Shown: positions 864-44,624, counted from the stretch's first letter. The stretch is 50,738 nucleotides of DNA from Candidatus Falkowbacteria bacterium CG10_big_fil_rev_8_21_14_0_10_44_15 (GCA_002773575.1 PFAT01000021.1:1-50738), one strand, 5' to 3'. The notes: generated by a model not told the origin, from the letters alone. A program made the numbers and translations.

Positions 864-1172
864 TTATTTCACGGGGTGAATGCTCTTGTGTTTTAATGCT
901 TTAATGCCAACGAACTCTTCTTTCCATTCTTTCACGAATTTACCTATGCCATCCCGCCCCAATTTATTTTTTAAACGCGGACTCTGATGCGCCCACCCGA
1001 GCAAAGAACCCATCTCCAAACTATAGCGGTTACCTTCTATCAGATAGATGATTTCTTTAGTTTTAATGGCTCGTCGGATAGTTTTTTGCTCCACGCCTAA
1101 TAATTTAGCCGCTTGCGTTACCGACAACCATAATTTATTAGAAATAGGCAGGTCTTTTTCTTTTATTTTCAT
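864..1172 (-). CDS. Small helix-turn-helix DNA-binding protein (excisionase/MerR-superfamily-like HTH)
   Basis: 102-aa ORF. LSVTQAAKLLGVEQKTIRRAIKTKEI is a canonical HTH near the N-terminus. Divergently oriented to the sigma-factor gene across an operator-rich spacer. Confidence 0.7.
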   Translation of the reverse strand: MKIKEKDLPISNKLWLSVTQAAKLLGVEQKTIRRAIKTKEIIYLIEGNRYSLEMGSLLGWAHQSPRLKNKLGRDGIGKFVKEWKEEFVGIKALKHKSIHPVK

Positions 1173-2150: not shown

Positions 2151-3299
2151 ATGGAAAAAGACATTATCACGCAGCTGCAAAGCTTGCGCACAATTAAGCC
2201 CAAAGAGAGCTGGCGGCTCGCCCAAAAAGAAATTTTGTTGCGTCAGATTTCCTCTGCCGCGCAGGAGACAGGAGCGGGGCGATATTTTTGGTTTTATCTA
2301 AAAGAGGTTATCCAGCATGAAGCGGCGCTTATTGGCCAGCCAATTGTTGGAGTTGCGGTGTTAATTTTGTTAATGGTCGGCGGAGGCGTATTCAGCATCA
2401 GCGCCGCTTCGGGAGCGACGCCGGGCAGTTTTCTTTATACCGTCAAATTAGTAAGCGAAAAAACGAGATTCGCCCTCACCGTCAATTCGGAAGATAAGGC
2501 AAGATTAAACGTTAAATTTGCCGAGCGCCGCGCCGAAGAAATAAAAGGTTTAGCGGATAAGGACGCGCATGTCATACTTAATGAAGTAGCCGATAACTTA
2601 AAAGAAGAAATTTCTTCCGCCCAGGAACAACTGAAACAGGTGGAAGTCAATAATCCCGGCACCGCCGTGGATTTAGCTAAGGACATTGAAAACAAAACGA
2701 CCGTTTTGCGGCAAAAGCTGCAGGAAACAAAAGAGGCGCTGGCTAAAAGCGGCAGTTCGGCTAACAGCAAAATCAATGAAGCGATTCGCAGCGTGGATGA
2801 AGCGGGTTTAAGCGCTTTAGGCACCATCGTTAAATCTGCCGGAAAAAATAATACCGTGAACAAAAAAGAGCTGAGCCAGAGAGTGGCGTCAAAATTAAAC
2901 ATCACTAAACAAAAAATTACCGAGGTTCAGGCGGACGTTAATAAAGTATTCAGCGCCGGCTTCAGCCGCAGCGAGAGCGGTTTGCAGATATACCAAGCTC
3001 CCAACAACGTTACTGACATGGAGACTAAGAAAAAAGCCGAAGCCAAAACTAAAGAAGCAAGCAAAATAATCACCGAGGCGGAACAGTTGCTGGATGACAA
3101 TAATTATCAAGAGGCGGTTAATAAGATAACGGCGAGCGAGCAGATATTAAATGAAGCCGCACAGGCGGTTGATCAAAAAATTATTGAACAGTCGGACGAA
3201 ACAGCCAGCAGCACCACCCCTCAAGTCAAAGGAATAATTGATCGGCTGGGCGATGGGGAAGAATCAGCCGAGAACGCGTCCACTACGATCGGCAACTAA
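2151..3299 (+). CDS. Single-pass membrane protein with coiled-coil ectodomain, putative anti-sigma factor
   Basis: Immediately downstream of the ECF sigma gene (14-nt gap). It has a short cytoplasmic N-terminus and one TM helix (IVGVAVLILLMVGGGVFSI). The long Lys/Glu/Ala-rich helical C-terminal region begins FLYTVKLVSEKTRFALT...FAERRAEEI. No zinc-binding HxxxCxxC motif is present. Confidence 0.55.
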   Translation: MEKDIITQLQSLRTIKPKESWRLAQKEILLRQISSAAQETGAGRYFWFYLKEVIQHEAALIGQPIVGVAVLILLMVGGGVFSISAASGATPGSFLYTVKLVSEKTRFALTVNSEDKARLNVKFAERRAEEIKGLADKDAHVILNEVADNLKEEISSAQEQLKQVEVNNPGTAVDLAKDIENKTTVLRQKLQETKEALAKSGSSANSKINEAIRSVDEAGLSALGTIVKSAGKNNTVNKKELSQRVASKLNITKQKITEVQADVNKVFSAGFSRSESGLQIYQAPNNVTDMETKKKAEAKTKEASKIITEAEQLLDDNNYQEAVNKITASEQILNEAAQAVDQKIIEQSDETASSTTPQVKGIIDRLGDGEESAENASTTIGN

Positions 3300-3454
3300 C
3301 AATAAGTATTTTATATTAGATATAATTAAGACATATAGCAAGACAAACCTTTTTCTATTTTGGTTGCGCCAAAAGCAAGCCACTAAAAGTAAAACATAAT
3401 AACTAGAAAAAGGACGTGTTCCTATATGGGGCAGGCTTTAGAAAAAAAGGTCGA

Positions 3455-3478
3455 CTATATTATAAATTTATAATATAG
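3455..3478. repeat. Perfect 24-bp AT palindrome CTATATTATAAATTTATAATATAG
   Basis: The self-complement was verified base by base. Its core ATAAATTTAT recurs at 3741-3750, just upstream of the surface-protein gene. Confidence 0.6.
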
Positions 3479-3552
3479 CTAGAGTCTTTATTAAGCGCCT
3501 TTGTAAATATTTGCGATTGGTCGCATTCTTGCTTAACTTATCAGTCAAGCAG

Positions 3553-3697
3553 TAAAAATCAACAAGCTTTCCCCCCACACTTACTCCGCAACTTTTTGGG
3601 AGCAGGGGGAAATAAATTTCCACTCTCTGCATTCTTACTGCCGCCCATGCGCGGTTGGGTGTAGGTGTGGGGGGGATGGGATTCCGGTTGATTTTTA
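3553..3697 (+). ncRNA. Candidate structured RNA: 5' leader stabiliser, attenuator or small ncRNA
   Basis: A GC-rich island in an AT-rich spacer. Helix 1 pairs 3553-3563 TAAAAATCAAC with 3687-3697 GTTGATTTTTA (11 bp). Helix 2 pairs 3571-3584 CCCCCCACACTTAC with 3661-3674 (14 bp, one G-U). Inner hairpins include GGAAA-TAAA-TTTCC at 3608-3621. A U-run follows (3692-3700). The element ends 85 nt before the ATG at 3783. Confidence 0.4.
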
Positions 3698-3782
3698 TTT
3701 AATCAAAGACGAAAAGTTAACGGGAAAAACGGCAAATTCATAAATTTATAAAAGCGCAACTTAAGAAAGGAATAATTTACGT

Positions 3783-6700
3783 ATGAGTAAATTACGAAAA
3801 GTTTTTACTGTCAGCGTCATGCTGATGACGATCCTGTCCATGAGCGTAGTCGTAGCGCCGCAAGCGCAAGCAACGGCGAGCGCCGGCGACCTCATTAAAA
3901 TGTCCGGATTGTCTTCAGTCTATTATTTGGCGGCTGACGGTAAACGTTATGTTTTCCCTAATGAGAATAGTTATTTTTCCTGGTACAGTGATTTTTCCAG
4001 CGTCGTAACCGTTTCCCAGTCCGAACTGGAAAGTTACCCGTTAGGCAAAAATATCACCATGCGGCCAGGCACTAAATTAGTTAAGATTACCACCGACCCC
4101 AAGGTGTACGCCGTGGAAACGAACGGCTCCTTAGTTTGGGTGCCGAGTGAAACGGTTGCCAACACCTTGTATGGCGCTAACTGGGCCAGGAGAATAGTTG
4201 ACGTTCCGGACGCTTTCTTCACTAATTACACGATTGCTACCGGTCAACAGGTGAGCGCAACCGCTTACCCCACGGGGAGTTTGGTAAAGTTCAGCGGCTC
4301 TACTGACGTCTATTATATCGCGAGCGACGGCAAAGCGCAGAAAGTGGAAAGCGCGGCTATGAGCGCCAACCGCTTTAAGACTGCCGATGTCATTACTGCT
4401 CCGGCTTCCGTTACGATGCCAGCCGCAGGCACTCCTATTGCCAGCGCGGTCGCTACTTTAATCGATACCTCTTCTGGCGCGGGCGGAACGGCGGCGGTAG
4501 CTACCGGTTCGGGCGTATCAGTGGCTTTGGCCTCTGACAATCCAGCCGCGGCTACGGTCGTTACCGACACGGCTGACGGCGCCCAATCAATGATTCCGGC
4601 GTTTCGGCTTAACTTTACCGCGGCGGCTGACGGCGATGTGGTCGTTAGAACAGTTAAAATCACCCGTGGCGGCATTTCGGCCGACACCGACGTGGTAAAT
4701 ATGTATTTGCTGGATGGTTCAACGGTCGTTGCCTCTAGCCCGTCAATTTCCACGAAAGTCTTTACCTTTACCAATTCAGCCGGTATATTTACCGTTACGC
4801 GCGGGACTACTAAAGCGATTGACGTTAAATTTGACCTGAAAGGTAACGCCACTGCCGGCATCACCATTAATTTCGCAGTTGCATCAGCTTCTGACATCAC
4901 CACGAGCGGCGCGGCCGTTTCCGGCTCATTCCCAATAACCGGTAACACCTTTACTTCCGCGAGCGTGACTGACTTAGGTAAATTAACACTTACCAACGTC
5001 TCTCCGACCGCGGCCGGTAGTGTTGACCCACAGGACAACTATGAAATTTGGCGCTTCACTGCGGCCGGCTCTTCACAGGACGTTGAATTGCGCAAGATGA
5101 TCTTTACGATTGTCGGCTCGGTCAACGTCGGCGACCTGAAAAACTTCGGTCTCTGGGACGGCGGCACGCAAATTGGCGGCACGGTAGCGGACATGTCTTC
5201 TAGTAAGACAATTACTCTAGACTTATCGTCAGCTCCGTACACGATTGTCAAAGGCGTGACCAAAACTTTGAGCTTAAAAGCTAATATCGTATCCGGCACC
5301 ACCCGAACTTTCCGCGCTTCCATTCAGAACGGCAGCGATTTAAGCATTTATGACAAAGGTTACGGCGTATTATTGCGTCATAACGGCGCGGACAGCTTCA
5401 CGGTACTGCAGCCGGTTGACTCCAATTCGGCGGCAGTAAGCTACACCATTAATTCCGGCTCCCTAACTATGTCTATCGCCCAGGATTCTCCGACTGGAAA
5501 TATCGCTTCTTCCACGACTAACACCACCTTATTAAAAGTGAGCATAAAGGCGTCTGGCGAAGATGTTAAGATTACCAGTTTAACCGTTAACTGCGATAGT
5601 TCGGTAGACACAAAGACCATTAAGAACCTCAAAGTTCTTTGGGATGGTTCACAGGTAGGTTCAGCCATCGCTACCTCGGGAGCTTGCGACGGAGCGGTCA
5701 ACAACGATTATACTTTGGGCAGCACGGTTATCGCTCGCGCCGGCCAGACTCATGTTTTGACGGTGGCGGCGGACATCACCGGCACGACAACTTCCGGAGA
5801 AACTTTAGTGGCTAATCTGGAAGTTGGTTCCAGCAATGCCCAAGGGCTGACCTCATTAACGACATTAAGCACTACCGCCATTACCGGCCGCACCTTAACG
5901 ATTGCCGCCGGCACTTTGACCGTTGTTAAGAATGTCAGTTTCGGCGACGGCAACTCATCTACTCCTACCGGTGTCGCCTACGGCGCCAATACTAAAGTCG
6001 CTTCCTTTACCATTATTGGGGGAGCGGGCGAACCGGCCGAAGTAACCCAAATTTCTTTAGCCGATGTTACCGCTGGCACCAAGTATGTCAGCAAGTACTT
6101 CCAGAACGTTAAATTAATGCACGGCACGACGCAGTTGGGTAATACGCTCGGCAGTCCGTCCAGCGGCGCGGACACAGCGCAGACGCATACCTTTAATATC
6201 TCGCCAGCCGTTACGATTAACTCGGGCGAGCAGTATGTGGTTGATGTGTACGCTGACGTTAAGAGTACTACCTTAACGACCGCGGCCGCGATTATTAAGG
6301 TTTCTTCCGTGACGGCGAGCGGCAAAAATACCGGCACCGCGGCCAGTTATTCCACGGCCGTAACCTTGCAGAGCCAGTACATCGCAACCGCGGGCGGCAT
6401 GACAATCGCGATTGACAGCGATACGCCGTTAGCTACCAACCTCTTAATGGGCGCGACTGACCAGACATTAGGGAAATTCAAGTTTACCGCGAGCTCCAGC
6501 GAATCCATAACCATCACCGAACTGGTTATTAGCGTAAATATTGAAAAAGATTCCGGCGCCACTGGTACGGTGAATAACATCCGCCTGTTTGACGTAAACA
6601 ACGTTCAAATCGGCAGCGCGGTTGCCGGTTTTGATGGCACCTACGCTACTACTACATACGCGCACGCTATCTTTAAGAGTCTGAGTCTGGTTATCCCCAA

Positions 6701-7544
6701 AGGCACAACTAAAGTCATTATCGTCAAGGCGGATCTTAATCCGTATGAGGGCAGCGGTTTGACCACCACTGGACAGGCCATTCAGTTAGCGATTGTGCCG
6801 ACTGACTATGACGCGACCACGAGCGGCAGTCAGTTGCCGATTACCGGCACCGGTTCCCAGTCCGGCCAGTCTATGACGGCTACGACTCTGACCTTTACTT
6901 CTAACGCCGGGTCTATTCCGTATTCTGACCAGACAAGCGCCACTTCCACGCAACTAGCGGCTAATGTTAATGTAGTACGCGCCAATGAAATGGTGCTGTA
7001 TCGCGCTAAATTAATGTTGGCTTGGAACGCGAACACCCCGTCCGGTTTAACTGGCAATAATAGTTCTAAACAGACTATTGCAGTGGTGAATGTTGCTAAT
7101 ACCGCCAACAGCGGCACCTATCCGGCTACTGTTAAAGCGATGAACATTAGCGTGTCAACCACTATTTCTAACGCCGCGGCCACAAATCGCAACTTGACTG
7201 TGTACAAAGATTCAGCTAGTGGCACTGTGTTGGGCACTACTACCTATGTTTCAACAACAATGGCGGTAGCGGGCGACAGCTATACGAACACGAACTTCCT
7301 GGATGGCGATATAACGGATGTAGAAATTTCAGACGGCTCCACCAAGACATTCTTCTTTACCTTAGATACGACGGATGCGGCTACGCAAAAGACATTGTCG
7401 GTTACCATCCCGGCTTATCATTCCGGCAAGTACGGCGCAACAGCTACGAACGGTTCGTATGGTTTAATTTGGTCTGACGGATCAACTACTAATATCATTG
7501 CTATAGATAACATTGATATTGGGTATAAGACATTGACCTACTAA
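3783..7544 (+). CDS. Large secreted cell-surface repeat protein (S-layer-like, probable glycoprotein)
   Basis: 1253 aa. The signal peptide is MSKLRKVFTVSVMLMTILSMSVVVAPQAQA/TAS. There are two N-terminal VYY(L/I)AxDGK...FPN modules. At least 6 degenerate ~100-150-aa beta-rich modules follow, each with a DxP...(F/L)K(F/L)TA...DV...I...L(F/W)DG..Q(I/V)G pattern. The composition is very rich in Thr/Ser/Ala/Gly/Val. An SD (GAAAGGA) lies upstream and a strong terminator downstream. Confidence 0.85.
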   Translation: MSKLRKVFTVSVMLMTILSMSVVVAPQAQATASAGDLIKMSGLSSVYYLAADGKRYVFPNENSYFSWYSDFSSVVTVSQSELESYPLGKNITMRPGTKLVKITTDPKVYAVETNGSLVWVPSETVANTLYGANWARRIVDVPDAFFTNYTIATGQQVSATAYPTGSLVKFSGSTDVYYIASDGKAQKVESAAMSANRFKTADVITAPASVTMPAAGTPIASAVATLIDTSSGAGGTAAVATGSGVSVALASDNPAAATVVTDTADGAQSMIPAFRLNFTAAADGDVVVRTVKITRGGISADTDVVNMYLLDGSTVVASSPSISTKVFTFTNSAGIFTVTRGTTKAIDVKFDLKGNATAGITINFAVASASDITTSGAAVSGSFPITGNTFTSASVTDLGKLTLTNVSPTAAGSVDPQDNYEIWRFTAAGSSQDVELRKMIFTIVGSVNVGDLKNFGLWDGGTQIGGTVADMSSSKTITLDLSSAPYTIVKGVTKTLSLKANIVSGTTRTFRASIQNGSDLSIYDKGYGVLLRHNGADSFTVLQPVDSNSAAVSYTINSGSLTMSIAQDSPTGNIASSTTNTTLLKVSIKASGEDVKITSLTVNCDSSVDTKTIKNLKVLWDGSQVGSAIATSGACDGAVNNDYTLGSTVIARAGQTHVLTVAADITGTTTSGETLVANLEVGSSNAQGLTSLTTLSTTAITGRTLTIAAGTLTVVKNVSFGDGNSSTPTGVAYGANTKVASFTIIGGAGEPAEVTQISLADVTAGTKYVSKYFQNVKLMHGTTQLGNTLGSPSSGADTAQTHTFNISPAVTINSGEQYVVDVYADVKSTTLTTAAAIIKVSSVTASGKNTGTAASYSTAVTLQSQYIATAGGMTIAIDSDTPLATNLLMGATDQTLGKFKFTASSSESITITELVISVNIEKDSGATGTVNNIRLFDVNNVQIGSAVAGFDGTYATTTYAHAIFKSLSLVIPKGTTKVIIVKADLNPYEGSGLTTTGQAIQLAIVPTDYDATTSGSQLPITGTGSQSGQSMTATTLTFTSNAGSIPYSDQTSATSTQLAANVNVVRANEMVLYRAKLMLAWNANTPSGLTGNNSSKQTIAVVNVANTANSGTYPATVKAMNISVSTTISNAAATNRNLTVYKDSASGTVLGTTTYVSTTMAVAGDSYTNTNFLDGDITDVEISDGSTKTFFFTLDTTDAATQKTLSVTIPAYHSGKYGATATNGSYGLIWSDGSTTNIIAIDNIDIGYKTLTY

Positions 7545-7610
7545 GGCCAAAAGTTCTGAAAGGTGTTTTCACAGGATTTTGTTTGTGGAGAACCAGTCAG
7601 AGAAGAGCAA

Positions 7611-7650
7611 CCAGTCTCCCGAAGTACTTCGGGAGACTGGATTGTTTTTT
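7611..7650 (+). terminator. Rho-independent terminator
   Basis: CCAGTCTCCCGAAG-TA-CTTCGGGAGACTGG (13-14-bp stem) is followed by ATTGTTTTTT. It lies 67 nt after the surface-protein stop. Confidence 0.85.
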
Positions 7651-7683
7651 GGGCATATTTTTAGTAGAATGACAATACGGCTG

Positions 7684-7723
7684 ACATTAAAACACCAGAA
7701 CACCAGAACATTAAAACAATAGA
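7684..7723. repeat. Intergenic octamer array ACATTAAA ACACCAGA ACACCAGA ACATTAAA ACAATAGA
   Basis: Five 8-nt units in an A-B-B-A-like order. The array ends 1 nt before a TATAAT (7725-7730) and starts just after CTGACA (7681-7686). It shares GACATTAAAACA with the intragenic array at 18903. Confidence 0.8.
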
Positions 7724-7750
7724 GTATAATGTTTTTGTTTTCATGCTTTA

Positions 7751-9985
7751 ATGAAATTTATGCTATTACCAAAAATCATTAAAATCGGTTTATACGCCAT
7801 ATTATTGTTGCCTTTAATAGTTACGCCGTTTACGATGTTTCCCTGGCAGTTCGGCAAAGTTATTTTTTTCCAAATTATTATTGAAATTTTAGCGTTCGTT
7901 TGGCTGGTGTTCTGGTTGCAGACGCCGGGCAGAGTTGAGTTAAGGAAATTAAACCGGTTAGACTGGGCGGTAATAATTTTTTTGGCTATTTTAGTGGTAA
8001 CGGCCGTAACGGGCGTTAATTTTAATAACAGTTTTTTCGGCAACCAGTCGCGGGCGCAAGGAGTAATGCTCTGGCTGCACTTTGGCGTTTTTTATTGGTT
8101 ACTTAAAAGTGCTTGGCGCGAAAAAAATGATTGGCAGCGTTATCTAAAAGCAACGGTAATTATTGCCGTGCTGGTCGGCGTGACGGCGATTTTGCAAAAT
8201 TATTTGCCGGCAACATGGCGGGGAGATTTAGGCCCGCGCCTGTCCGGCATCGTCGGCAATCCAGCTTTTTTAGCCGCTTATATCATACTGCCGGCGTTTA
8301 TTGCTTTGAGTTTAGTTTTTAAATCAAGCCGCGCACTTGAGACTTGGTTTTGGCTCGGCATCGCTCTTTTAGAAGCCGTGATATTATGGGGTACAGGCAT
8401 TAGAGGAGTAATTTTAGGCGCAGGCATAGGGGCTATTAGCGTATTGGCGATGGCTATATTTATATTAAATAAAAAACAACGATTAACGGCGGTTATTATT
8501 TTAGCGGCATTGCTCTTTACGGGCGCAACGACAATAATGCTCGCCCGCCTGCCTAAAGCGCAGGAGAAAGTCCCGTTTTTAACCGGGATAGCCAATATTC
8601 AAAATATTACTCAAGCCAGTACGGCGCAGACGCGTTTAATGGCTTGGCAGATAGCTGGGCAAGGATTTAAGAATTATCCGTTGTTCGGCATAGGAATGGG
8701 CAACTACGAAGTTATTTTTAACCAATACTATAATCCCGAACTTCTGCGCTACGGATTTAAAGAAACGATTTGGGATAAGCCGCACAATTGGCTGCTGGAA
8801 CTCGCGGTGAGCGCGGGGATATTCGGCGTATTAGCGTATTTAGCGGTATACGCGGCAGCGGTACAGGCGCTGGTGCGCAAAGCGCGGCAAGAAATAACTT
8901 CTAAAGATAAATGGGCGCAAATTATTTTAGCCGGCGGGCTACTCGCGTACTTTATCCAAAATTTATTTTTATTTGAAACATTTAACGCGCTTCTGATATT
9001 TTTTATTATTTTAGCTTTTATTTCCGGCAGGATATTTTCAGAAACATCAACTGATAAAATTTTGTCTAAAAAATCTAAATTCGCTTCGCTGATTTTAACC
9101 GGCGTTGGCGCGCTAATTTTATTTTTACTTTATCAATACAATTATCTGCCTTTGCGCGCTTCTTACTATTTAGCTTTGTCCGAAAACGCCGGCCGCTACC
9201 AAAATTCTCCCGCCGCTTGGGCAACCAATGCGCAGCTTTCTTTGCGAACCCCTTCTTATTTAAAATTAGAAAGCGCGGTGTTGGCCGCCTCCACTCTGGA
9301 TACCATGAGCAAGAAAAACATTATTAAAGACGGCCAAGACATTAAGGAAGCGGCGTTGATGTTGACGTCAATACTTGCGGACGGAGCAAAAAAATATCCG
9401 CAAAATTATATTTATCCGGTTTGGGCCGGGCAGGCGTATTTAGTTTTAGGAGAGTATGTGGACGCGGCTTACTTTGAACAGGGGCGGGAGTTTTTGGAGC
9501 AGGCAAGGCAAATTGCTCCCCGCAAACAGGAAGTGTACTTTTTATTAGGGCAGGCATATCTGTATCAACAAAACGCTGCGGCAGCAAAGGATATTTTGCA
9601 GGCAGCGGTGGCAATCAGCCCTGATTTAGGGCAACCGCATTGGTTTTTAGGTTTAGCGTATGAAGCGGCCGGCGAGCGGCTGAAAGCTCTGCCGGAATTA
9701 AAACAAGGTCTGCGGCTTGAGCCGGATTTACAAACCGAGCAAAATATCTTATATTTAATAGACATTTTGGCTGAAGCCAAAGATTATGCCACTATCCTTG
9801 ATTACTACAAATTATTGAGCCAGCGGCAACCAAATGAAGGATATTGGCACGCGAAACTGGCGGCGACTTACCTTGCCCAAGGAGATAAAGCAATGGCGTT
9901 AACAGAAATTATTACCGCCGCTGAGTTAGATATGCGTTTGCAGGCGGAGGCGCAAAAATTCATCCGAGACAATAATTTAAAATAA
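7751..9985 (+). CDS. O-antigen ligase (Wzy_C)-like polytopic membrane protein with C-terminal TPR domain
   Basis: 744 aa with more than 10 TM helices. Wzy_C hallmarks are TRLMAWQIAGQGFKNYPLFGIGMGNY and WDKPHNWLLELAVSAGIFG. The C-terminal ~250 aa are TPR-like (WAGQAYLVLGEY..., HWFLGLAYEAAGE...). Confidence 0.8.
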   Translation: MKFMLLPKIIKIGLYAILLLPLIVTPFTMFPWQFGKVIFFQIIIEILAFVWLVFWLQTPGRVELRKLNRLDWAVIIFLAILVVTAVTGVNFNNSFFGNQSRAQGVMLWLHFGVFYWLLKSAWREKNDWQRYLKATVIIAVLVGVTAILQNYLPATWRGDLGPRLSGIVGNPAFLAAYIILPAFIALSLVFKSSRALETWFWLGIALLEAVILWGTGIRGVILGAGIGAISVLAMAIFILNKKQRLTAVIILAALLFTGATTIMLARLPKAQEKVPFLTGIANIQNITQASTAQTRLMAWQIAGQGFKNYPLFGIGMGNYEVIFNQYYNPELLRYGFKETIWDKPHNWLLELAVSAGIFGVLAYLAVYAAAVQALVRKARQEITSKDKWAQIILAGGLLAYFIQNLFLFETFNALLIFFIILAFISGRIFSETSTDKILSKKSKFASLILTGVGALILFLLYQYNYLPLRASYYLALSENAGRYQNSPAAWATNAQLSLRTPSYLKLESAVLAASTLDTMSKKNIIKDGQDIKEAALMLTSILADGAKKYPQNYIYPVWAGQAYLVLGEYVDAAYFEQGREFLEQARQIAPRKQEVYFLLGQAYLYQQNAAAAKDILQAAVAISPDLGQPHWFLGLAYEAAGERLKALPELKQGLRLEPDLQTEQNILYLIDILAEAKDYATILDYYKLLSQRQPNEGYWHAKLAATYLAQGDKAMALTEIITAAELDMRLQAEAQKFIRDNNLK

Positions 9986-9997
9986 CCCCACAAATCT

Positions 9998-10684
9998 ATG
10001 TTTAATTCCAAAGCAAAAATAATTATCTTAACAGCCCTTATTTGTCTGTTAGTCGCACTAGGCGGCGGAGCAATTTATTATTATTCCTCTGAAGGTTATC
10101 AAGTAAAAAAGAGGTTAGCGGGCGATGAACAGTTGTTAGCCGTGTATGATAGAATAAAAGGACAAGAGAAAAAGAACAAGCAAGAAGGAAAAATTACCTT
10201 GGAACGGGTGATAATCATTGGCAACAGTTGGAAGGGCTTGGGCGATCAAACCCAAGACAAATTTTTTTACCAAAAGTCGTTAGCAGTGTATCAAGAAGGC
10301 ATTAAACTGTTTGGCGAAAAAAATGTATTAGTTTACTGGAATGCCGGTAAAGTAGCCGAGTATTTGGAAGATTACAATTTAGCCGAAAGCTATTACCGGC
10401 AGTCTATCGCCATTTCTCCTTCTTATGAAGACCCGTATCGCAATTTAGCCGACCTTTATCGCTTTAAAATGAACAAGGACCCTAAGGACATCATCGCGGT
10501 TTATGACGAAGGCATGGAAGCGACCGCCGGCAACGCCAGCTTATTTTTGGATAAATGCTCATACCTGCGCTTGAGCGCCAATTATGCAGAAGCTTTGGCC
10601 TGCTATAAGATTTTAAGCAAGAATTATCCCGATAACAGCGGTTATAAAGAAGTCATCCAAGAATTAGAGAGTAAGATAAAATAA
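9998..10684 (+). CDS. Membrane-anchored TPR-repeat protein
   Basis: 228 aa. The N-terminal TM helix is IIILTALICLLVALGGGAIYYY. TPR-like repeats follow (YWNAGKVAEYLEDYNLAESYYRQSIAISPSYEDPYRNLADLY). Confidence 0.75.
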   Translation: MFNSKAKIIILTALICLLVALGGGAIYYYSSEGYQVKKRLAGDEQLLAVYDRIKGQEKKNKQEGKITLERVIIIGNSWKGLGDQTQDKFFYQKSLAVYQEGIKLFGEKNVLVYWNAGKVAEYLEDYNLAESYYRQSIAISPSYEDPYRNLADLYRFKMNKDPKDIIAVYDEGMEATAGNASLFLDKCSYLRLSANYAEALACYKILSKNYPDNSGYKEVIQELESKIK

Positions 10685-10701
10685 AAAAGTTTTTTTTAAA
10701 T

Positions 10702-12999
10702 ATGCCTAAATATTTAGAATCAACCAAACTCATCGCGGCCGCTAAATGGCTGCTTTATTTAACTGCCTTTACCCCTCTAATAATTTCCGGCGCTTTTCTT
10801 TTCCCCTACATCAGCGCGCGCACCGTATTTTTCCGTCTGCTGATTGAAGCAGCGTTATTGGTTTTAATATTATTAATATGGTTATATCGTTTGCGGCTGC
10901 CGGAAAAAGGCGGCGGCAATTATATTTTCGTCGTCTTTATCGCTTTCGTAGCTACCAACATCATCTCTTCTTTCTTTAGCTTCTCGCCGCTAATAGCCTG
11001 GTTTTCAGACATTGAACGGATGTGGGGGATATTTACGCTCCTGCACTTATTTATGTTTTATTGGCTGTTGCGCACTTTTTTTACCGGTAAAGAATGGAAA
11101 ATATTTTTTTCTATTTCTTTAGCAGTAAGTTTATACGTAGCTTTCTACGGCATTATTCAACATTATCCCGACGTTTTTGGAATTAAATTATACCAAGCCG
11201 GCATCGGCCGCATTATCAGCACTTTGGGCAATCCGGCTTATGTGGCGATTTATTTAATTTTTAATGTTTTTTTCGCCATTTTTCTCTGGAGCCGCAGCCA
11301 TAAACTTTGGTTAAGATGGTATTATGCGGCAGTAATCGCGATAGATTTATTCGCCTTTAATTTGGCGGGTATCCGCGGCACGACTTTAGCCGTTTTAGCG
11401 GCCGCGGTCGTTGCCGGATTAGTTTACATAATTTTGGGGCATAAAAAAAGCTATAAAATAAGCATCGCCTCTCTTTTAATCATTGCTCCATTAATTTTTA
11501 CCTACGCTTTCCTGCATCCGGAAGGAAAGTTAGCGCAGAGCAATCCGGTACTGCAAAGAATAGCGACTATTTCCTTATCAGGCGACACTACCGAAACGCG
11601 CCTGATTGGCTGGCGGGCCTCTCTTAAAGGTTTTTTGGAACACCCGATTTTTGGGGTAGGAATGGATAATTACTACGTGGTGTTCAATAAATATTTTAAT
11701 TCAAACTATTATCTTTATGCCGCCTCGGAACCGTACTTTGACCGCTCGCACAACGCTTTTTTGGATGTATTGGTAATGAACGGCGCCGTCGGCTTCATTG
11801 TTTTTCTAGGGTTCCCCATAAGCATCGTCTATTATCTGTTGCGCGGTTATCGCGAGGGTAAAATTAATTTGGACGAATTGCTGATTTTTTTAGCTTTGAC
11901 CATCACCTATTTTGTCCACCTCTTTTTTGTCTTTGACGATTTGAACTCATATTTATTTTTTGTGGTTTTACTCGCTTTCGTTGAATACCGCTACCAGCGA
12001 GAGCCGCTGGTAACCTTTGGCGAGCAACGCGCGCCGCGCTCTTTAGTTAATTTGAGCGGCGGCGCCGCGGCAATTATCATTATCATTATAATGTATAGTT
12101 TAAACATAAAAGTGTTGCAGGCGTCCAATGCAGTCATTGACGCTTTTTCCTATCGCGATGATATTATGGCCACGACCGCTACTTTTCAGAAGGCGATTGA
12201 TTATCACATTATCCCTTCTCGCAATATCGTTACTTCTTATGTCAGTTACCTGACAGAAGTAGCGGGTAATTTGCCGGCGGTAGCGAGCGACGCGCAGAAA
12301 AAGGCGGCGTTAACGGAAGGAATAAAAAATATTATTATTGCTTTAGATAAAGAAATAAAGAAAGACCGCTTTAACGCTTTGCTTTACGATCGCCTCTCCA
12401 TTATCAATAATATCGCCTATTTGCTCACTAATGATAGGGCGTATTTACAAAATTCCTTTGATGCCGTTCGCGAAGCGATTGCCTTAAGTCCGGAACATCT
12501 GCATTATTATTACACGCTGGTTGACACTTATATTATCGCCGGCCGGATGGCAGAGGCGATCCAAACCGCTGGGGACGCGCTCAAGATAAACAGCGAGTAT
12601 GCGACCGGATATTTTTATTTAGCTAAGGCCTATACTGCCGCCGGGCAGTTTGACCAGGCGTTAATCGTCGTTAAACAACTAAAACCGCGCGGATATTTTG
12701 CCACCAACAACGTACTGTTTTCTTATCTGGCTAATAAATTTGAAGAAAATAAAGAAGAGCTGAAAGCAATTGAGGTTATGGCAGAAGCAATAAAAGTTAA
12801 CCCAAACGATGCTCAATCACTGGTGCGGCTAATAAAACTTTATCTAAAAACAGGGCAAAATGATAAGGCAATTGCCGCGGCGCAAAAATTACCGGCGGCG
12901 AACGCAAGCTTTGCCAAAGACGCCGACTATATTATCGGCAAGATTCAAGCCGGACAGGCGCCGGAATTATTGCAGGAAATTGAAAGTAGAGTAAAGTAG
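10702..12999 (+). CDS. O-antigen ligase (Wzy_C)-like polytopic membrane protein with C-terminal TPR domain (paralogue of 7751-9985)
   Basis: 765 aa. Motifs are TRLIGWRASLKGFLEHPIFGVGMDNYY and FDRSHNAFLDVLVMNGAVG. C-terminal TPR repeats are present (YFYLAKAYTAAGQFDQAL...). Confidence 0.8.
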   Translation: MPKYLESTKLIAAAKWLLYLTAFTPLIISGAFLFPYISARTVFFRLLIEAALLVLILLIWLYRLRLPEKGGGNYIFVVFIAFVATNIISSFFSFSPLIAWFSDIERMWGIFTLLHLFMFYWLLRTFFTGKEWKIFFSISLAVSLYVAFYGIIQHYPDVFGIKLYQAGIGRIISTLGNPAYVAIYLIFNVFFAIFLWSRSHKLWLRWYYAAVIAIDLFAFNLAGIRGTTLAVLAAAVVAGLVYIILGHKKSYKISIASLLIIAPLIFTYAFLHPEGKLAQSNPVLQRIATISLSGDTTETRLIGWRASLKGFLEHPIFGVGMDNYYVVFNKYFNSNYYLYAASEPYFDRSHNAFLDVLVMNGAVGFIVFLGFPISIVYYLLRGYREGKINLDELLIFLALTITYFVHLFFVFDDLNSYLFFVVLLAFVEYRYQREPLVTFGEQRAPRSLVNLSGGAAAIIIIIIMYSLNIKVLQASNAVIDAFSYRDDIMATTATFQKAIDYHIIPSRNIVTSYVSYLTEVAGNLPAVASDAQKKAALTEGIKNIIIALDKEIKKDRFNALLYDRLSIINNIAYLLTNDRAYLQNSFDAVREAIALSPEHLHYYYTLVDTYIIAGRMAEAIQTAGDALKINSEYATGYFYLAKAYTAAGQFDQALIVVKQLKPRGYFATNNVLFSYLANKFEENKEELKAIEVMAEAIKVNPNDAQSLVRLIKLYLKTGQNDKAIAAAQKLPAANASFAKDADYIIGKIQAGQAPELLQEIESRVK

Positions 13000-13065: not shown

Positions 13066-14232
13066 TTAACGGCTATACAAATTGGCTGTTTTTTTTATCA
13101 TAGTCTGTAAGCCGTATTTAGCGATTACTTGTTTATTAGCCTCAACTCCTATTTGTTTACTAACGGACGAACGGTTTAGGGCGTAACTTAATTTATCCGC
13201 TAAAGCGGCGGCGTTGCCGGACTTAACCAACAGCCCGGTTTGGCCATCGGTAATTATTTCCGGAATGGCGCCGACGGGTGTCGCCACAATCGGCAAACCC
13301 GCTTGCATCGCTTCCAAGATGGAATAGGGCAGGCCTTCTTTAACGGAAGAACAGACATAAATATCAAAAGCCGGCAGAAGTTGAGCGGCGTCGCCAATTG
13401 AACCCGTTAGAATTATTTTATTTTGTAATTCGCAATTGTTAATTCGTAATTGCAAATTGTTTTGTTCAGGGCCGGAGCCAATGATAATTAACTTAATATT
13501 GGATATTGGATATTGCCTGCCTGCCGGCGAGGCAGGGATATTGGATATTTTTATTGCTTCAATAAGATACTCGTAGCCCTTATTTTTGTATAGATTGCCG
13601 ATAGAGCCGATAAGTATCGTTTGGTCGTCAATTGGCGCGCCAGTTATTTTTGCCAGTCGCGCGCGCGCTTCCGGCCGTGATAAAAAGTCCATGGGCGCGA
13701 TGCCGTTGTAAATGACGCTTATTTTTTTTGCGGGCGCAATTTGACGCCGCACAGTATTTTGTTTTTCAAATTCAGAAAGGCAAATTATGTTAGTTTTTAA
13801 TTTTGCCGTCCATTTTTCCAATAGCAAGTAAAAGGTTTTTTTCCGCCAAGGCAGATTTTCATTAAACACCCAGCCGTGCACCGTATAGATTATTTTTGGC
13901 ACTTGACACCACCACGCGGCCAGCGAGCCGAGAATGCTGATTTTAGAGCTGTTTAAATGGACAATGTCCGGCTTTTCTGTCTGAATTAAATGTACAATTT
14001 GCCAAAAAGCTGACCAATCATGCCAAGGGGAAATAGCCCGTTTTAAGCGTGAGAGCGGTAGATAGCGAATGCCGGACTTATTGAGTTTTTTTGCCAATTC
14101 TCCCTCATAACCTTGCCCACCACTGGCGACTACAATAGTAAAATTTTCGCTAAGGTTAGTAGCTAAATCGTAGACATATCGTTGCGCTCCGCCAAAGTCT
14201 GATTGGGTGACAAGGTAAAGTATTTTTAACAT
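13066..14232 (-). CDS. GT4-family (GT-B) glycosyltransferase
   Basis: 388 aa. The N-terminus reads MLKILYLVTQSDFGGAQRYV. The C-domain has GNLYKNKGYEYL...IIIGSGPE...SSVKEGLPYSILEAMQAGLPIVATPVGAIPEII (EX7E region). It carries two repeat arrays. Confidence 0.85.
   Translation of the reverse strand: MLKILYLVTQSDFGGAQRYVYDLATNLSENFTIVVASGGQGYEGELAKKLNKSGIRYLPLSRLKRAISPWHDWSAFWQIVHLIQTEKPDIVHLNSSKISILGSLAAWWCQVPKIIYTVHGWVFNENLPWRKKTFYLLLEKWTAKLKTNIICLSEFEKQNTVRRQIAPAKKISVIYNGIAPMDFLSRPEARARLAKITGAPIDDQTILIGSIGNLYKNKGYEYLIEAIKISNIPASPAGRQYPISNIKLIIIGSGPEQNNLQLRINNCELQNKIILTGSIGDAAQLLPAFDIYVCSSVKEGLPYSILEAMQAGLPIVATPVGAIPEIITDGQTGLLVKSGNAAALADKLSYALNRSSVSKQIGVEANKQVIAKYGLQTMIKKTANLYSR
13418..13459 (-). 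repeat. In-frame heptamer array (coding sense CAATTTG CAATTAC GAATTAA CAATTGC GAATTAC AAAATAA)
   Basis: 6 x 7 nt = 42 nt. It encodes NLQLRINNCELQNK at the position of the usual ..L..ELGI.D.V.F.G helix/loop. Confidence 0.8.
13496..13551 (-). repeat. In-frame heptamer array interrupted by a 21-nt GC-rich palindrome
   Basis: On the plus strand the units read ATATTGG ATATTGG ATATTGC | CTGCCTG CCGGCGA GGCAGGG | ATATTGG ATATTTT. A hairpin CCTGCC-GGCGA-GGCAGG lies at 13520-13536. The array encodes KISNIPASPAGRQYPISNIK. Confidence 0.8.
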
Positions 14233-14350
14233 ATGATGATTGACTTTTTTGTCTATTTATTAAATAATACCTTATAGAATAGCTAAATTCAAGTATGCTA
14301 TTTAAACTAAGATATAATCTTAGTTTATTTTGATATTATTAAATTTTTTT

Positions 14351-15220
14351 ATGAAAAAATTAATCGGGTTTTGCGGCCAGGGCTGGATTGGCAAAAATTA
14401 CGCCGACAATTTTGGGGAGCGCGGCTATGAAGTAGTGCGTTACGCCAAGGAAGAGCCGTACGTTAAAAATAAAGAAGCTGTTAAAAATTGCGATATCGTT
14501 TTTATCGCCGTGCCGACGCCCACCACGCCGCAAGGATTTGACGACGGCATTTTGCGTTCGGTCGTGCCGTTGGTGGGAGAAGGCAAAATCGCCGTCATTA
14601 AATCAACAGTATTACCCGGCACGACCGAATCAATTCAGGCCGAGAACAAAAATATTTTCGTAATGCACTCGCCGGAATTCCTGACGGAGAGCAGCGCCGC
14701 TTATGACGCGGCTAACCCCAACCGCAACATCGTCGGGATTGCGGAAGACAGCGATGCGCACCGGGCCAAAGCGAAAGAGGTGATGGAGGTTTTACCGTAC
14801 GCGCCTTATCAATTAGTTTGCCGCGCGCGCGAGGCGGAACTGATTAAATATGGCGGCAATTGCTGGTTTTTTTTCAAAGTTATTTTTATCAACATGCTTT
14901 ACGACTTGGCGCAGAAGTCGGGCGTGCAATGGGAGACGGTGCAGGATGCGATGGCCGCTGACCCCAGAATCGGCCGCACTCATTTGAATCCCATCCATCA
15001 AGGCGGGCGCGGCGCCGGCGGGCATTGCTTTATCAAAGATTTCGCGGCTTTTACCGACATTTACCGGCGTCAGTCAGGCGATAATTTAGGCAGGCAAGCG
15101 CTGGAAAGTTTAGCGCAAAAAAATATAGATTTACTCATTAAGAGCAAAAAAGACATTGATTTGCTAAAGGGAGTGTATGGCGATAAAGTGATCGGTGATA
15201 AACTGGCCGGTAATCAATAA
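14351..15220 (+). CDS. Short UDP-glucose/GDP-mannose dehydrogenase-family protein lacking the C-terminal nucleotide-sugar-binding domain
   Basis: The start is taken at ATG 14351 (MKKLIGFCGQGWIG gives the GxGxxG motif); the track's TTG at 14330 is rejected. The catalytic-Cys motif is GGRGAGGHCFIKD. The protein ends about 64 aa after that Cys and is only ~289 aa long. Confidence 0.75.
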   Translation: MKKLIGFCGQGWIGKNYADNFGERGYEVVRYAKEEPYVKNKEAVKNCDIVFIAVPTPTTPQGFDDGILRSVVPLVGEGKIAVIKSTVLPGTTESIQAENKNIFVMHSPEFLTESSAAYDAANPNRNIVGIAEDSDAHRAKAKEVMEVLPYAPYQLVCRAREAELIKYGGNCWFFFKVIFINMLYDLAQKSGVQWETVQDAMAADPRIGRTHLNPIHQGGRGAGGHCFIKDFAAFTDIYRRQSGDNLGRQALESLAQKNIDLLIKSKKDIDLLKGVYGDKVIGDKLAGNQ

Positions 15221-17173: not shown

Positions 17174-18303
17174 GAATTTTAATTTTGGCTACTGCTTATA
17201 TCCCTCATGTCGGCGGCGCGGAAGTGGCGGTTAAAGAAATAACTAAGCGGCTGGAACGCCAGTTTGAAATGATTACGGTGCGGCTGAAAAAAGCGGATGC
17301 GGCTGAAGAACAGGTAGGCAACATCAAAGTTTATCGTTTGGGTTTTGGCTTAGGCAGAATTGACAAATACTTTTTTCCTTTCCGGGCGGCTCGGCTCGCA
17401 AATAAATTGCACCGGCAAAATCATTACGATGTCGTTTGGTCAATTATGGCGAGCTGGTCCGGCTTTGCCGCTTTATTTTTTTGCAAAAACAGCAGCGTTA
17501 AATTTTTGCTGACTTTGCAGGAAGGGGATGATTTGCGCGTGCCAGTGAGGAAATCTCTGATGGTACATCATTGGTTTAAACAAATTTTTCAACGCGCTGA
17601 TTACATCCAATGCATTTCCAGCTATTTAGCCGATTGGGCGAAAAAAATGGGAGCGACCTGTCCGATAGAGGTAGTGCCGAATGGAGTGGACCTGGAAAAA
17701 TATCAAATATCAAATATCAAATATCAAACAAATCACAAATCACAAAATCAAAATTCAAAAATTATTCTCACTACCTCGCGTTTAGTGCAAAAAAATGGAA
17801 TAGTAGATTTAATAGAAGCTACTGCGTTACTCATTACCCATTACTCATCACCCGTTACTTTAGTAATCTGTGGCGATGGCGAGGAAAGAAAGAAGTTAGA
17901 AGTTAAAAGTAAGCAGTTAGGCATTGCCGATGAAGTAAAATTTATGGGTTTTGTAAAGCCGGAAGAATTGCCAAAATTTTACGCGATTGCCGATGTATTC
18001 TGCCGGCCGTCTCTTTCCGAAGGGTTAGGCAACTCTTTTTTGGAAGCGATGGCCGCGGGCGTGCCGGTAGTGGCAACGCCGGTCGGCGGCATCCCTGATT
18101 TTTTACGGGACGGCAAGACCGGCTGGTTTTGTAGAGTTAATGACCCGGCAAGCATTGCGGAAAAAATAAAATATATTTTGGATGAACAAAATAAAGCAGA
18201 AGCGCAGAAAGTAATAAATAACGCGAAGCAAATGGTTTTAGACAAATACGATTGGGATGGCATTGCCGGTCAAATGGAAAATATTTTTAAGGCACTTAAA
18301 TGA
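17170..18303 (+). CDS. GT4-family glycosyltransferase
   Basis: 377 aa with an ATGA overlap with the upstream gene. Motifs are [14 protein letters not shown] and [33 protein letters not shown]. It carries two repeat arrays. Confidence 0.85.
17701..17763 (+). repeat. In-frame heptamer array (TATCAAA)x4 CAAATCA CAAATCA CAAAATC AAAATTC AAAAATT
   Basis: 9 x 7 = 63 nt = 21 codons. It encodes [21 protein letters not shown] in the GT-B interdomain linker between VPNGVD and the SRL..KG motif. Confidence 0.85.
17827..17861 (+). repeat. In-frame heptamer array TTACTCA TTACCCA TTACTCA TCACCCG TTACTTT
   Basis: Encodes [12 protein letters not shown] just before the beta-strand VICGDGEE. It is related to the TTACCCG array at 20641. 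Confidence 0.7.
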
Positions 18304-25714: not shown

Positions 25715-25727
25715 AATAGCTAATGAT

Positions 25728-26498
25728 ATGTTAAAAATAATTGCCGATGATTTCGGTCTCGCTGGTTGCGTTAACGACGGCATTATTTATTTATTAACAA
25801 CGGGTAAAATTAACGGAGCGTCTTTAATGGCTAACGGCGTTGCTTTTGACGACGCAGTTTCCAAAATAAAATCCGGGGCAGCCAGCAATTTAAATATCGG
25901 AGCGCATTTAGTTTGGGTGGAAGAGAAATCCTTAAGCGGCGTAAAGTTGTCCGGAAATTATAAAATATTTTTTATTAAATACCTGTTAGGGTTAATTAAA
26001 TTGGCGGACATAGAACAAGAAGCAAGAACCCAGTTAGATAAAATCAGCCGCAGTGGCATTAAACCCCAATTTATCAATAGCCATCAACATTTACATTTAC
26101 TGCCAAGTATCACAAATATTGTCATTAAGCTCGCCCAAGAATATAACATCGCCCATATTCGAACCGTGAACGAACCGATTAATTTTGGGGGCGGTAAGTT
26201 ATTGAGAAAGTTACAACTATTGTTTCTGCGCTGGCTGTCAAGGTCGGCTAAAATTAAAATAAAAACAGCCGGCCTGCAAATTAACGATTTTTTTGTGGGC
26301 GTTGTTAACGCCGGCAATTTAGATAAAAGCTACTTAGAATATGCCAATCATATCGCTAACCAATATCCTAACGCAACGGTTGAACTGGGATGTCATCCGG
26401 GCTTTGAGGACGAGGCATTAAGAAAGAAATGTCAACATTGGGGCAATTATCATTGGCAGCAAGAGTTTGAGCTATTAAAAAATCACCACCATGGATAA
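25728..26498 (+). CDS. YdjC/ChbG/HpnK-family carbohydrate deacetylase
   Basis: MLKIIADDFGLAGCVNDGI....GKINGASLMANG and INSHQHLHLLP give the characteristic YdjC metal-binding pattern. Confidence 0.75.
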   Translation: MLKIIADDFGLAGCVNDGIIYLLTTGKINGASLMANGVAFDDAVSKIKSGAASNLNIGAHLVWVEEKSLSGVKLSGNYKIFFIKYLLGLIKLADIEQEARTQLDKISRSGIKPQFINSHQHLHLLPSITNIVIKLAQEYNIAHIRTVNEPINFGGGKLLRKLQLLFLRWLSRSAKIKIKTAGLQINDFFVGVVNAGNLDKSYLEYANHIANQYPNATVELGCHPGFEDEALRKKCQHWGNYHWQQEFELLKNHHHG

Positions 26499-27486: not shown

Positions 27487-27490
27487 AATA

Positions 27491-40307: not shown

Positions 40308-40319
40308 AAATTGTTAATT

Positions 40320-41039: not shown

Positions 41040-41049
41040 AATTAATTTT

Positions 41050-41634: not shown

Positions 41635-41651
41635 TTCATTGCTTAAAAGTT

Positions 41652-42740: not shown

Positions 42741-42756
42741 TAATGATAATTTTTAT

Positions 42757-44595: not shown

Positions 44596-44624
44596 ATGAA
44601 GTAAAAATAATTAAAACACGAACA

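Follow-up and report, generated by a model that had tools for sequence, protein, structure and literature searches.

A predicted S-layer biogenesis locus of Patescibacteria, with TPR-bearing glycan ligases as possible O-glycosylation enzymes

A stretch of 50,738 nucleotides from Candidatus Falkowbacteria bacterium CG10_big_fil_rev_8_21_14_0_10_44_15 (GCA_002773575.1 PFAT01000021.1:1-50738; this whole stretch is hereafter called the window) carries a gene for a probable surface-layer (S-layer) protein of 1253 aa. Directly behind it lies an operon for two membrane proteins of the Wzy_C family, here named ligases A and B, each extended by tetratricopeptide repeats (TPRs), and for a small membrane-anchored TPR protein. 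The region is regarded here as an S-layer biogenesis locus in which the favoured role of the ligases is en-bloc O-glycosylation of the S-layer protein, an overall reading to which an even chance is given. As the gene has ligase genes of this kind behind it in dozens of related genomes too, the lattice protein is probably sugar-coated. The proposed surface-glycosylation system is a Patescibacteria phylum-wide case of an already known type of system, from which some distinct traits set the locus apart: it has two old paralogous ligases accompanied by a free TPR protein, and a sigma factor of its own.

Patescibacteria represent a large share of bacterial diversity and almost none of them have been cultured. 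Because they are mostly host-attached, their surface is where their biology happens. An operon joining a predicted S-layer protein to two glycan ligases provides a testable model of how this surface is built and decorated, with a bearing on host attachment, phage recognition and antigenic variation. In the literature, no paper was found linking the candidate phyla radiation (Patescibacteria) to O-antigen ligases or oligosaccharyltransferases. If the proposal is true, the system would be, as far as literature searches show, the first protein glycosylation system described in Patescibacteria, and the ligases would form a new TPR-fused branch of O-oligosaccharyltransferases, maybe useful for glycoengineering.

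An original prediction, made from the sequence alone, had placed four open reading frames (ORFs), a terminator and about 37 kb of sugar-related genes in the window, and all were found where it placed them. The central features are the following.

3783-7544, + strand: probable S-layer protein gene (1253 aa), so identified from composition, homologues, six modules, a structure model and the literature
7611-7640, + strand: intrinsic terminator behind the S-layer gene, with a 13-bp stem (8 GC pairs), a 4-nt loop and a T-run
7751-9985, + strand: Wzy_C-TPR ligase A (744 aa), with a Wzy_C match of 55.0 bits and C-terminal TPRs
9998-10684, + strand: membrane-anchored TPR protein (228 aa), with TPR_2 and further TPR matches and a transmembrane helix at residues 8-26
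10702-12999, + strand: Wzy_C-TPR ligase B (765 aa), with a Wzy_C match of 59.4 bits and C-terminal TPRs

The three genes behind the terminator (7751-12999) are separated by gaps of 12 and 17 nt, which fit an operon. The closest homologues of the surface protein and of the ligases belong almost only to organisms named Candidatus Magasanikbacteria or Patescibacteria, which places the source organism in the Patescibacteria, with Candidatus Magasanikbacteria as the lineage to which these matches assign it. Where these homologues are named at all, the name is 'O-antigen ligase family protein' or 'hypothetical protein'.

A predicted S-layer protein with six Ig-like modules

The 1253-aa protein has one hydrophobic stretch, near its N-terminus (residues 7-25), with AQA behind it; this is read as a signal peptide covering aa 1-30. 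The mature protein has a pI of 5.07 and a mass of 125 kDa. Thr (14.7 %), Ser (11.4 %) and Ala (11.3 %) stand out in its composition. The signal peptide, the acidic pI, the 26 % of Ser+Thr and the presence of 2 Cys favour S-layer identity. The gene was said to have its own Shine-Dalgarno sequence and a strong terminator; AAAGGA indeed occurs about 10 nt 5' of the ATG, and the 13-bp-stem terminator was recovered.

The protein is laid out as an N-terminal module of two subrepeats (aa ~33-215), a linker rich in S/T/A/G (~216-245) and six immunoglobulin (Ig)-like modules (~241-1253). Its C-terminus, ...KTLTY, is conserved in the alignment of homologues. The earlier description 'repeat protein' is valid at the level of profile and fold only. 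Indeed, comparison of the protein with itself by BLAST gave no repeats, whereas profile-profile comparison of alignment segments recovered six homologous modules of ~155 aa, most pairs of which reach an HHalign probability of 91-99 %. By the same approach, the N-terminal module resolves into two related subrepeats. An AlphaFold2 (AF2) model of residues 236-1253 is all-beta, with a predicted local distance difference test score (pLDDT) of 83, falling below 50 at aa ~1040-1062. Structural matches of this core model are chains of Ig-like domains from multi-Ig proteins. With Foldseek, these matches were generic, with low TM-scores, and no solved S-layer protein stood out. Sequence searches of Pfam, NCBIfam and the PDB yielded no match for the 1253-aa protein, and the N-terminal module had no significant Pfam or PDB match, profile search included. 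More than 1400 full-length homologues were nevertheless found, at 38-65 % identity, none of the listed matches being functionally named. The protein is thus a Sec-exported protein with six Ig-like modules.

A 2024 preprint predicts for Patescibacteria a six-Ig-domain S-layer protein, 1131-1274 aa in length, that would assemble into p6 'hexagonal spiral pyramid' lattices; the family is numerous across Patescibacterial classes and, in cultured relatives, its homologues are among the five most expressed genes with a signal peptide (bioRxiv 10.1101/2024.05.28.596244). These highly expressed homologues bear peptidoglycan-binding and Ig-like domains (Kuroda et al. 2024). The window protein resembles this family by its length, its six Ig-like modules, its signal peptide and its wide spread in Patescibacteria, and peptidoglycan-binding N-terminal modules are found in some members on both sides. 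It differs in that its own N-terminal module matches no known family. An adjoining ligase operon is not mentioned in the available part of the preprint, where the six-Ig protein is likened to Haloferax volcanii csg. Published members include A0A1G2EN61 and GMX59286.1; looking up clusters gave 'hypothetical protein' records only and established no connection between the homologues and the preprint's UniProt accessions. The 1253-aa protein closely matches the predicted S-layer family of the preprint in its architecture, its length and its taxon. The label 'S-layer-like' given to it earlier is therefore well supported, since signal peptide, six Ig-like modules, length and taxon all agree with that family. 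At the family level, the S-layer identity is already in the literature. The protein is probably the most abundant one of the cell.

The N-terminal module deserves separate consideration. In some homologues it is replaced by PG_binding_1, so that it is, from these sequences, probably a wall anchor. Exchange of this module between lineages is seen in P0180/L078 (2068-5529), in L045 (from 9443) and in L081 (6343-9762), where PG_binding_1 or other modules stand in its place while the six-Ig core is kept.

Two Wzy_C-TPR ligases linked to the probable S-layer gene

Ligases A and B exceed the curated cut-off (31.7 bits) of Pfam Wzy_C (PF04932), a family matched by 46/46 aligned members of the ligase family. 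They align with each other over their full length at 25 % identity (E 3e-49), and comparison of the two sequences makes ligase B an old paralogue of A. The claim that the operon encodes two paralogous Wzy_C membrane proteins with TPR domains thus holds. Searching the PDB with ligase A as a single sequence returned TPR proteins only, and WaaL and PglL came into reach once a membrane-domain profile was used. This profile, made of 39 membrane domains, matches WaaL 7tpg with E 9e-14 and a 610-aa oligosaccharyltransferase, 9rmk, with E 9e-9, the latter alignment (profile positions 127-453) covering almost all of the membrane domain. The numbering of 9rmk agrees with that of Neisseria PglL. Residue conservation was assessed over 39-46 sequences including both paralogues. 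In ligase A numbering, R101, N170, R295, D342 and H345 are invariant and R218 is near-invariant. R218/R295/H345, kept in both paralogues, align to R191/R265/H313 of Cupriavidus metallidurans WaaL (CmWaaL) and to R224/R298/H349 of PglL, all of them known as essential; they belong to the Arg/Arg/His set in and around the large outward loop, represented by R215/R288/H338 in E. coli WaaL.

Ligase A was modelled with AF2 (pLDDT 93.6, predicted TM-score 0.91). The model displays 13 transmembrane helices, a WaaL/PglL-like membrane core and a C-terminal TPR superhelix. The best Foldseek match of the membrane core is WaaL 7tpg_B, with a target-normalised TM-score of 0.66 over 458 columns. The core of 12 helices is followed by a K-rich loop, a 13th helix (aa 445-483) and the TPRs (aa 487-740). 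Because of this K-rich loop and this additional helix, the TPR superhelix of ~250 aa is, like the catalytic loop, placed outside the cell; in the model, the TPR domains of the ligases are extracytoplasmic. Both A and B therefore possess an extra C-terminal extracytoplasmic domain behind the Wzy_C core. Wzy_C_2 (PF11846) was weakly matched in 13/46 family members. The 228-aa protein has one N-terminal transmembrane helix followed by TPRs, with its N-terminus inside and its TPR domain outside. Profile searches, structure prediction and comparison of catalytic residues had been proposed at the outset as checks. They establish the Wzy_C and TPR domains, a WaaL-like fold and a retained Arg/Arg/His set. 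From their sequences, ligases A and B are glycan ligases of the WaaL/PglL superfamily with intact catalytic residues and a predicted activity.

Conservation of the gene linkage in related genomes was another check set by the original prediction. In a forward scan, one genome per species was searched with the surface-protein alignment. It returned 52 loci, which belong to Magasanik-, Falkow-, Kerfeld-, Azam-, Paceibacter- and other Patescibacteria. Downstream counts refer to the 36 loci with at least 2.5 kb of sequence 3' of the S-layer gene, upstream counts to 39 loci. A Wzy_C-TPR gene is found on the same strand within 1.5 kb downstream of the S-layer gene in 28/36 loci and within 10 kb in 32/36. 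The small TPR gene follows the S-layer gene in 23/36. On the upstream side, a homologue of an extracytoplasmic function (ECF) sigma factor is present in 35/39 loci, and a DUF5667 gene is syntenic in most. A gene for a glycosyltransferase of family GT4 is syntenic behind the operon in many loci. The order ECF sigma factor, DUF5667, S-layer gene, Wzy_C-TPR, small TPR protein, Wzy_C-TPR, GT4 is kept in 28-32 of the 36 loci. The number of ligase genes per locus varies from 1 to 4. In the relatives, the A-type gene is usually the first behind the S-layer gene and the B-type gene is second in most loci. Conversely, a metagenome search starting from ligase A gave 18 informative loci, with the S-layer gene directly upstream in 15 of them, 6 kb off in one and absent from two. 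In both search directions, the ligase gene thus adjoins a plausible acceptor gene, that of the S-layer protein, and the linkage is strongly conserved, so that a missing conserved linkage, named at the outset as a refutation, is clearly not what is observed. Since A is almost always the next gene after the S-layer gene, the A-type enzyme looks, from gene order, dedicated to it.

The association between S-layer and ligase genes is also kept when the N-terminal module is PG_binding_1 (L078; L081, from Liptonbacteria) or yet another module (L079). Because it persists across exchanged anchor modules, the linkage tracks the Ig core rather than the anchor.

Some observations on individual loci may be added. 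Several public records of metagenome-assembled genomes with a clearly Patescibacteria-type locus (L007-L009, L011, L014, L015, L018, L020, L024, L026, L028, L029 and L041) are titled 'uncultured Gammaproteobacteria bacterium', and that of L038 is titled Thermoplasmata archaeon; such titles look like mislabelling or binning errors. In L018, a 711-aa gene behind the S-layer gene was considered as a Wzy_C candidate and ruled out by hidden Markov model search. B-like Wzy_C-TPR genes with the same DxxHN motif occur at L080 10001-12178 and L082 10001-12226, with no S-layer gene within 10 kb. One of the two surrounding clusters has NeuB and a Wzx-type Polysacc_synt flippase; the other, with SIS, CTP_transf_like/PfkB, a phosphatase and a family GT2 glycosyltransferase, has the look of heptose-type synthesis.

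What the ligases may transfer, and to which acceptor

In the favoured mechanism, enzymes of the downstream cluster would build glycans on undecaprenyl pyrophosphate, and these would then be flipped outward. The Wzy_C-TPR enzymes would transfer them en bloc to Ser, Thr or Tyr residues of the exported S-layer protein, as is proposed for WsaB and WsfB in Firmicutes and as is done by PglL in Neisseria. The fused and free-standing TPR domains would dock the protein substrate. Paralogue A would be the dedicated S-layer enzyme, while a second glycan or a different acceptor may fall to B. Glycans would most likely be attached in two flexible stretches rich in S/T/A/G, at aa ~216-245 and ~1040-1062.

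The closest parallel is provided by the S-layer glycan (slg) clusters of Geobacillus stearothermophilus (sgsE-wsaA-wsaB...) and Paenibacillus alvei (spaA, wsfA, wsfB), where, as here, the S-layer gene is linked to a glycan cluster and the predicted transferase is a Wzy_C membrane protein. A review of these systems describes WsfB and PglL with C-terminal TPRs, and WsaB without TPR, adjoined by WsaA, a TPR protein of 168 aa. TPRs are accordingly either fused (WsfB) or carried by a small neighbour (WsaA), and the 228-aa protein of the window is analogous to WsaA. Methyltransferases are common to slg clusters and window, as is a homologue of asparagine (Asn) synthase, reported within the P. alvei locus and represented in the window by an AsnB-like amidotransferase. 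The Firmicutes parallel drawn by the original prediction is therefore closer than had been stated, given the fused TPRs of WsfB and PglL, the neighbouring WsaA and the Asn-synthase homologue of P. alvei. The likeness to WsaB and WsfB is drawn from the descriptions of these systems. Several differences should also be underlined. The window belongs to another phylum, and its S-layer family has six Ig-like modules and no SLH domain. Two old paralogous ligases and a free TPR protein form an operon directly behind the S-layer gene, an ECF sigma factor and a DUF5667 protein are encoded upstream, and no WsaP-type primer or Wzm/Wzt occurs within 50 kb.

PglL-type oligosaccharyltransferases (Neisseria PglL, PDB 9rmk; Acinetobacter PglL/ComP) share with the window ligases the Wzy_C core, equivalents of R224/R298/H349 and of G316/G318/E404, an extra C-terminal extracytoplasmic domain and a gene adjoining the likely target. 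PglL homologues are usually encoded beside the target gene. Unlike PglL, the window ligases carry a ~250-aa TPR superhelix at the C-terminus, and their likely target is the S-layer protein instead of a pilin. En-bloc O-glycosylation of the S-layer protein is ranked first because fused TPRs, a free TPR protein and an AsnB-like gene occur here as in slg clusters, and because PglL genes adjoin their targets; on these analogies, its chances appear evenly balanced.

A number of points weigh against this mechanism. Glycosylation of the S-layer protein is itself a prediction. No Wzy_C gene lies within 10 kb of the S-layer gene in 4/36 loci, and distant B-like Wzy_C-TPR genes reside in sugar clusters with no S-layer gene nearby. 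TPR domains are also used as scaffolds in polysaccharide export. Pfam PglL_A (PF15864) was found neither in the table of the first family member nor among the 25 most-matched families. Of the residues specific to PglL, G316, G318 and E404 are kept (3/7), the last being Asp in paralogue B, and Q178 is conservatively replaced by Asn, whereas N180, H400 and P406 are not retained in the ligase family. As PglL_A is not seen and the PglL-specific residues are partly kept, the Wzy_C-TPR proteins constitute their own branch of the superfamily. Furthermore, no priming phosphoglycosyltransferase, Wzx flippase or Wzm/Wzt exporter was found in the 50-kb window, the scanned ORFs of at least 120 aa giving no Bac_transf, Glycos_transf_4, Polysacc_synt or ABC2_membrane match; the priming enzyme and the exporter may be encoded elsewhere in the genome. 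Two further points are considered below: a glycolipid serves as acceptor for one Wzy_C ligase of a monoderm, and the cluster contains enzymes that could glycosylate the S-layer protein directly or else decorate a polymer.

A broader proposal may also be formulated. The A-type enzyme would be an S-layer O-oligosaccharyltransferase that has travelled together with the six-Ig gene through much of Patescibacteria, the glycosylated S-layer being old and near-universal in these ultra-small symbionts. One conserved surface-biogenesis module would then unite the B paralogue and the free TPR protein with the ECF sigma/DUF5667 pair and with a structured leader RNA not described before (AAGGUCGA and its hairpin). 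This extended view is put forward tentatively, with somewhat more doubt than confidence.

The main rival concerns the acceptor. The ligases would put an undecaprenyl-pyrophosphate-linked polymer on a membrane glycolipid or wall acceptor, as TacL or WaaL do, and the N-terminal module of the S-layer protein would bind this polymer non-covalently. The product would resemble lipoteichoic acid or a secondary cell wall polymer, and the gene linkage would result from lattice and anchor being made together. To our knowledge, Patescibacteria have no lipopolysaccharide (LPS) and no outer membrane, and the original prediction had argued from the missing outer membrane to a protein acceptor. This argument fails: TacL of Streptococcus pneumoniae, a lipoteichoic acid ligase of the Wzy_C family (397 aa, no TPR), uses a glycolipid acceptor in a monoderm, which makes the inference from the missing outer membrane unsafe. 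The membrane core of the window ligases also scores better against WaaL than against the protein oligosaccharyltransferase (E 9e-14 versus 9e-9), WaaL being both their best profile match and their best membrane-core fold match. The unclassified N-terminal module could bind a polymer, B-like paralogues are found in ordinary polysaccharide clusters, and in Firmicutes and Caulobacter the S-layer needs an anchoring glycan of its own. Against an anchoring polymer stands the persistence of the linkage where the anchor is a peptidoglycan-binding domain, for which no special polymer is needed; the survival of the linkage through exchange of the anchor module weakens this explanation. WaaL (~400 aa, 12 transmembrane helices) and TacL lack the extra helix and outward TPR domain of the much longer window ligases, features which WsfB and PglL have. 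Hence, the window ligases do not correspond to a compact lipid-acceptor ligase of ~400 aa in an LPS or teichoic-acid locus, and no LCP ligase, teichoic-acid-type or lipid A genes turned up in the window. The paper on TacL reports no link to an S-layer gene. The acceptor of WaaL is lipid A-core, which is not expected in Patescibacteria. Overall, a lipid- or wall-linked anchoring polymer is considered unlikely, though it has to be taken seriously.

A second rival keeps glycosylation of the S-layer protein and assigns it to other enzymes. Sugars would be added one at a time outside the cell by a three-component route, from GT2 enzymes resembling PgfS and ArnC, which would produce undecaprenyl-phosphate sugars, through a GtrA-type flippase to membrane transferases of the GT-C/PMT_2 type, and the Wzy_C-TPR proteins would have another task, e.g. 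polymer ligation or glycan polymerisation. The ingredients are indeed present in the downstream cluster. The GT2 proteins at 24728 and 26491 match PgfS (E 9e-82 and 2e-41) and ArnC (E 1.5e-53 and 1.7e-52), a GtrA-GT4 fusion is encoded at 18300-19946, and four GT-C-like membrane proteins (27434, 33166, 38502, 42757) were found, one matching PMT_2 and one weakly Glyco_transf_22/TMEM260-like, two of the four being mutual paralogues with no Pfam or NCBIfam match. The Liptonbacteria locus (L081) has GtrA and PMT_2 near the S-layer gene, and the Pgf system glycosylates Thr-rich streptococcal adhesins. It is possible that these GT2 and GT-C proteins form a second glycosylation route, on the outside of the membrane, which the original prediction had overlooked. 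As an explanation of the locus, a three-component route appears improbable. GT2/GtrA/GT-C triads usually decorate existing glycans, the genes in question lie 11-35 kb from the S-layer gene, beyond the 10-kb flanks examined, and the tight, conserved adjacency of S-layer and Wzy_C-TPR genes would be left unexplained.

Finally, it may be imagined that the Wzy_C-TPR proteins are Wzy-type polymerases extending a capsule- or sheath-like polysaccharide, since Pfam Wzy_C also covers some polymerases, tandem copies (2-4) exist in some genomes and a Parcubacteria cell has been observed with a 'thick sheath', but the invariant D-x-x-H-N histidine and two arginines, which are the catalytic set of ligases and oligosaccharyltransferases, the rank of WaaL as best structural match of the membrane core and the lack of a nearby Wzx or chain-length regulator render this very improbable.

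Upstream regulators, a candidate leader element and the downstream glycan cluster

The other features of the window are listed below.

864-1172, - strand: small DNA-binding protein, HTH_17 (Pfam E 3.9e-07)
1585-2136, + strand: ECF-type sigma factor, BldN-like (Sigma70_r2/r4_2; TIGR02952 E 2.9e-38)
2151-3299, + strand: single-pass membrane protein with DUF5667 (E 5.7e-18), one transmembrane helix at residues 65-83
3433-3487, + strand: conserved cis element, candidate structured RNA of the 5' untranslated region (5'-UTR), with the word AAGGTCGR, a hairpin and an outer stem
13066-14232, - strand: GT4 glycosyltransferase, convergent with the operon (Glycos_transf_1 E 2e-36)
14330-50648, no strand assigned: glycan biosynthesis cluster, from domain searches of ORFs

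No tRNA was found in a search of the window, and Rfam at gathering thresholds gave no match anywhere in it. The DNA of the window is present in groundwater metagenomes, whereas no RNA-seq run containing the S-layer gene was found.

The position of the DUF5667 gene suggests that its product is the anti-sigma partner of the ECF sigma factor. In two lineages with an S-layer protein of the PG_binding_1 type, an HTH_DeoR regulator replaces the ECF sigma/DUF5667 pair (L078 201-1091; L081 5026-5796). The window (864-1172, -) and a distant relative (L079 7155-7436, -) both carry a small HTH_17 gene that lies upstream of the sigma factor in the opposite orientation.

Between the DUF5667 and S-layer genes of the window, an outer stem (3433-3441 / 3479-3487) surrounds AAGGTCGA (3447-3454) and a hairpin (3455-3478). 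Of 46 loci, 38 have a single AAGGTCGR in the 650 nt upstream of the S-layer gene. Its density is 1.28 per kb in these upstream regions versus 0.024 per kb elsewhere, a 54-fold enrichment. In most loci AAGGTCG(A/G) is ~100-150 nt 5' of the S-layer start codon, as against 335 nt in the window. A hairpin that varies with the lineage starts 1 nt after AAGGTCG, and in most cases word and hairpin are both surrounded by the outer stem. The sequences were folded one by one and put through a scripted stem test, with random positions as controls: hairpin and outer stem, each of at least 5 bp, are present together in 64 % of loci versus 17 % of random controls. Other examples are at L001 ~8660-8720, L010 ~9811-9871 and L037 ~1482-1542, with ~35 other loci besides. 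MAFFT alignment followed by RNAalifold predicted no pairs for the element, because hairpin and junction lengths vary among lineages. Rfam with permissive thresholds returned nothing credible for 3300-3790. The possibility that AAGGTCGA is a promoter element of the ECF sigma factor was set aside, since GAAC-like words upstream of it, looked for by eye, are only ~11 nt off and not general. The element formed by AAGGTCGA and its hairpin is a candidate structured 5'-UTR leader of the S-layer mRNA. Together with the ECF sigma/DUF5667 pair, this leader would probably control how the S-layer gene is expressed. Such a conserved leader gives access to the regulation of the protein that is probably the cell's most abundant one.

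Downstream of the operon, the announced run of sugar-nucleotide, glycosyltransferase and methyltransferase genes extends from 13066 to the end of the window. Between 13066 and 50648 are encoded ~10 GT4 and 5 GT2 proteins, 7 S-adenosylmethionine-dependent methyltransferases, nucleoside-diphosphate (NDP)-sugar dehydratases and epimerases, 2 DegT aminotransferases, a GNAT protein, the AsnB-like amidotransferase (29189), YdjC and the 4 GT-C-like polytopic proteins. A UDP-sugar dehydrogenase-like gene is present, and a GDP-mannose 4,6-dehydratase is found among the NDP-sugar enzymes. Most of the GT-C-like proteins are near PgfS/ArnC-like GT2s (24728-29179, 33166-34926, 37793-40307 and 40311-44595).

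The UDP-glucose/GDP-mannose dehydrogenase-like ORF at 14330-15220 encodes 296 aa and lacks the C-terminal domain, whereas the syntenic gene of L079 encodes 464 aa with three domains. The short form is shared with a relative at 92 % identity (L053), which would correspond either to a conserved truncation or to a different enzyme. Lastly, the GC content is 0.52 in the S-layer gene (4001-6000), 0.43-0.45 in most of the cluster and 0.34-0.37 in its distal part (40001-48000). This low-GC part may be a recently exchanged sugar-modification module, and the variable look of this far end of the cluster hints at exchangeable sugar modules.

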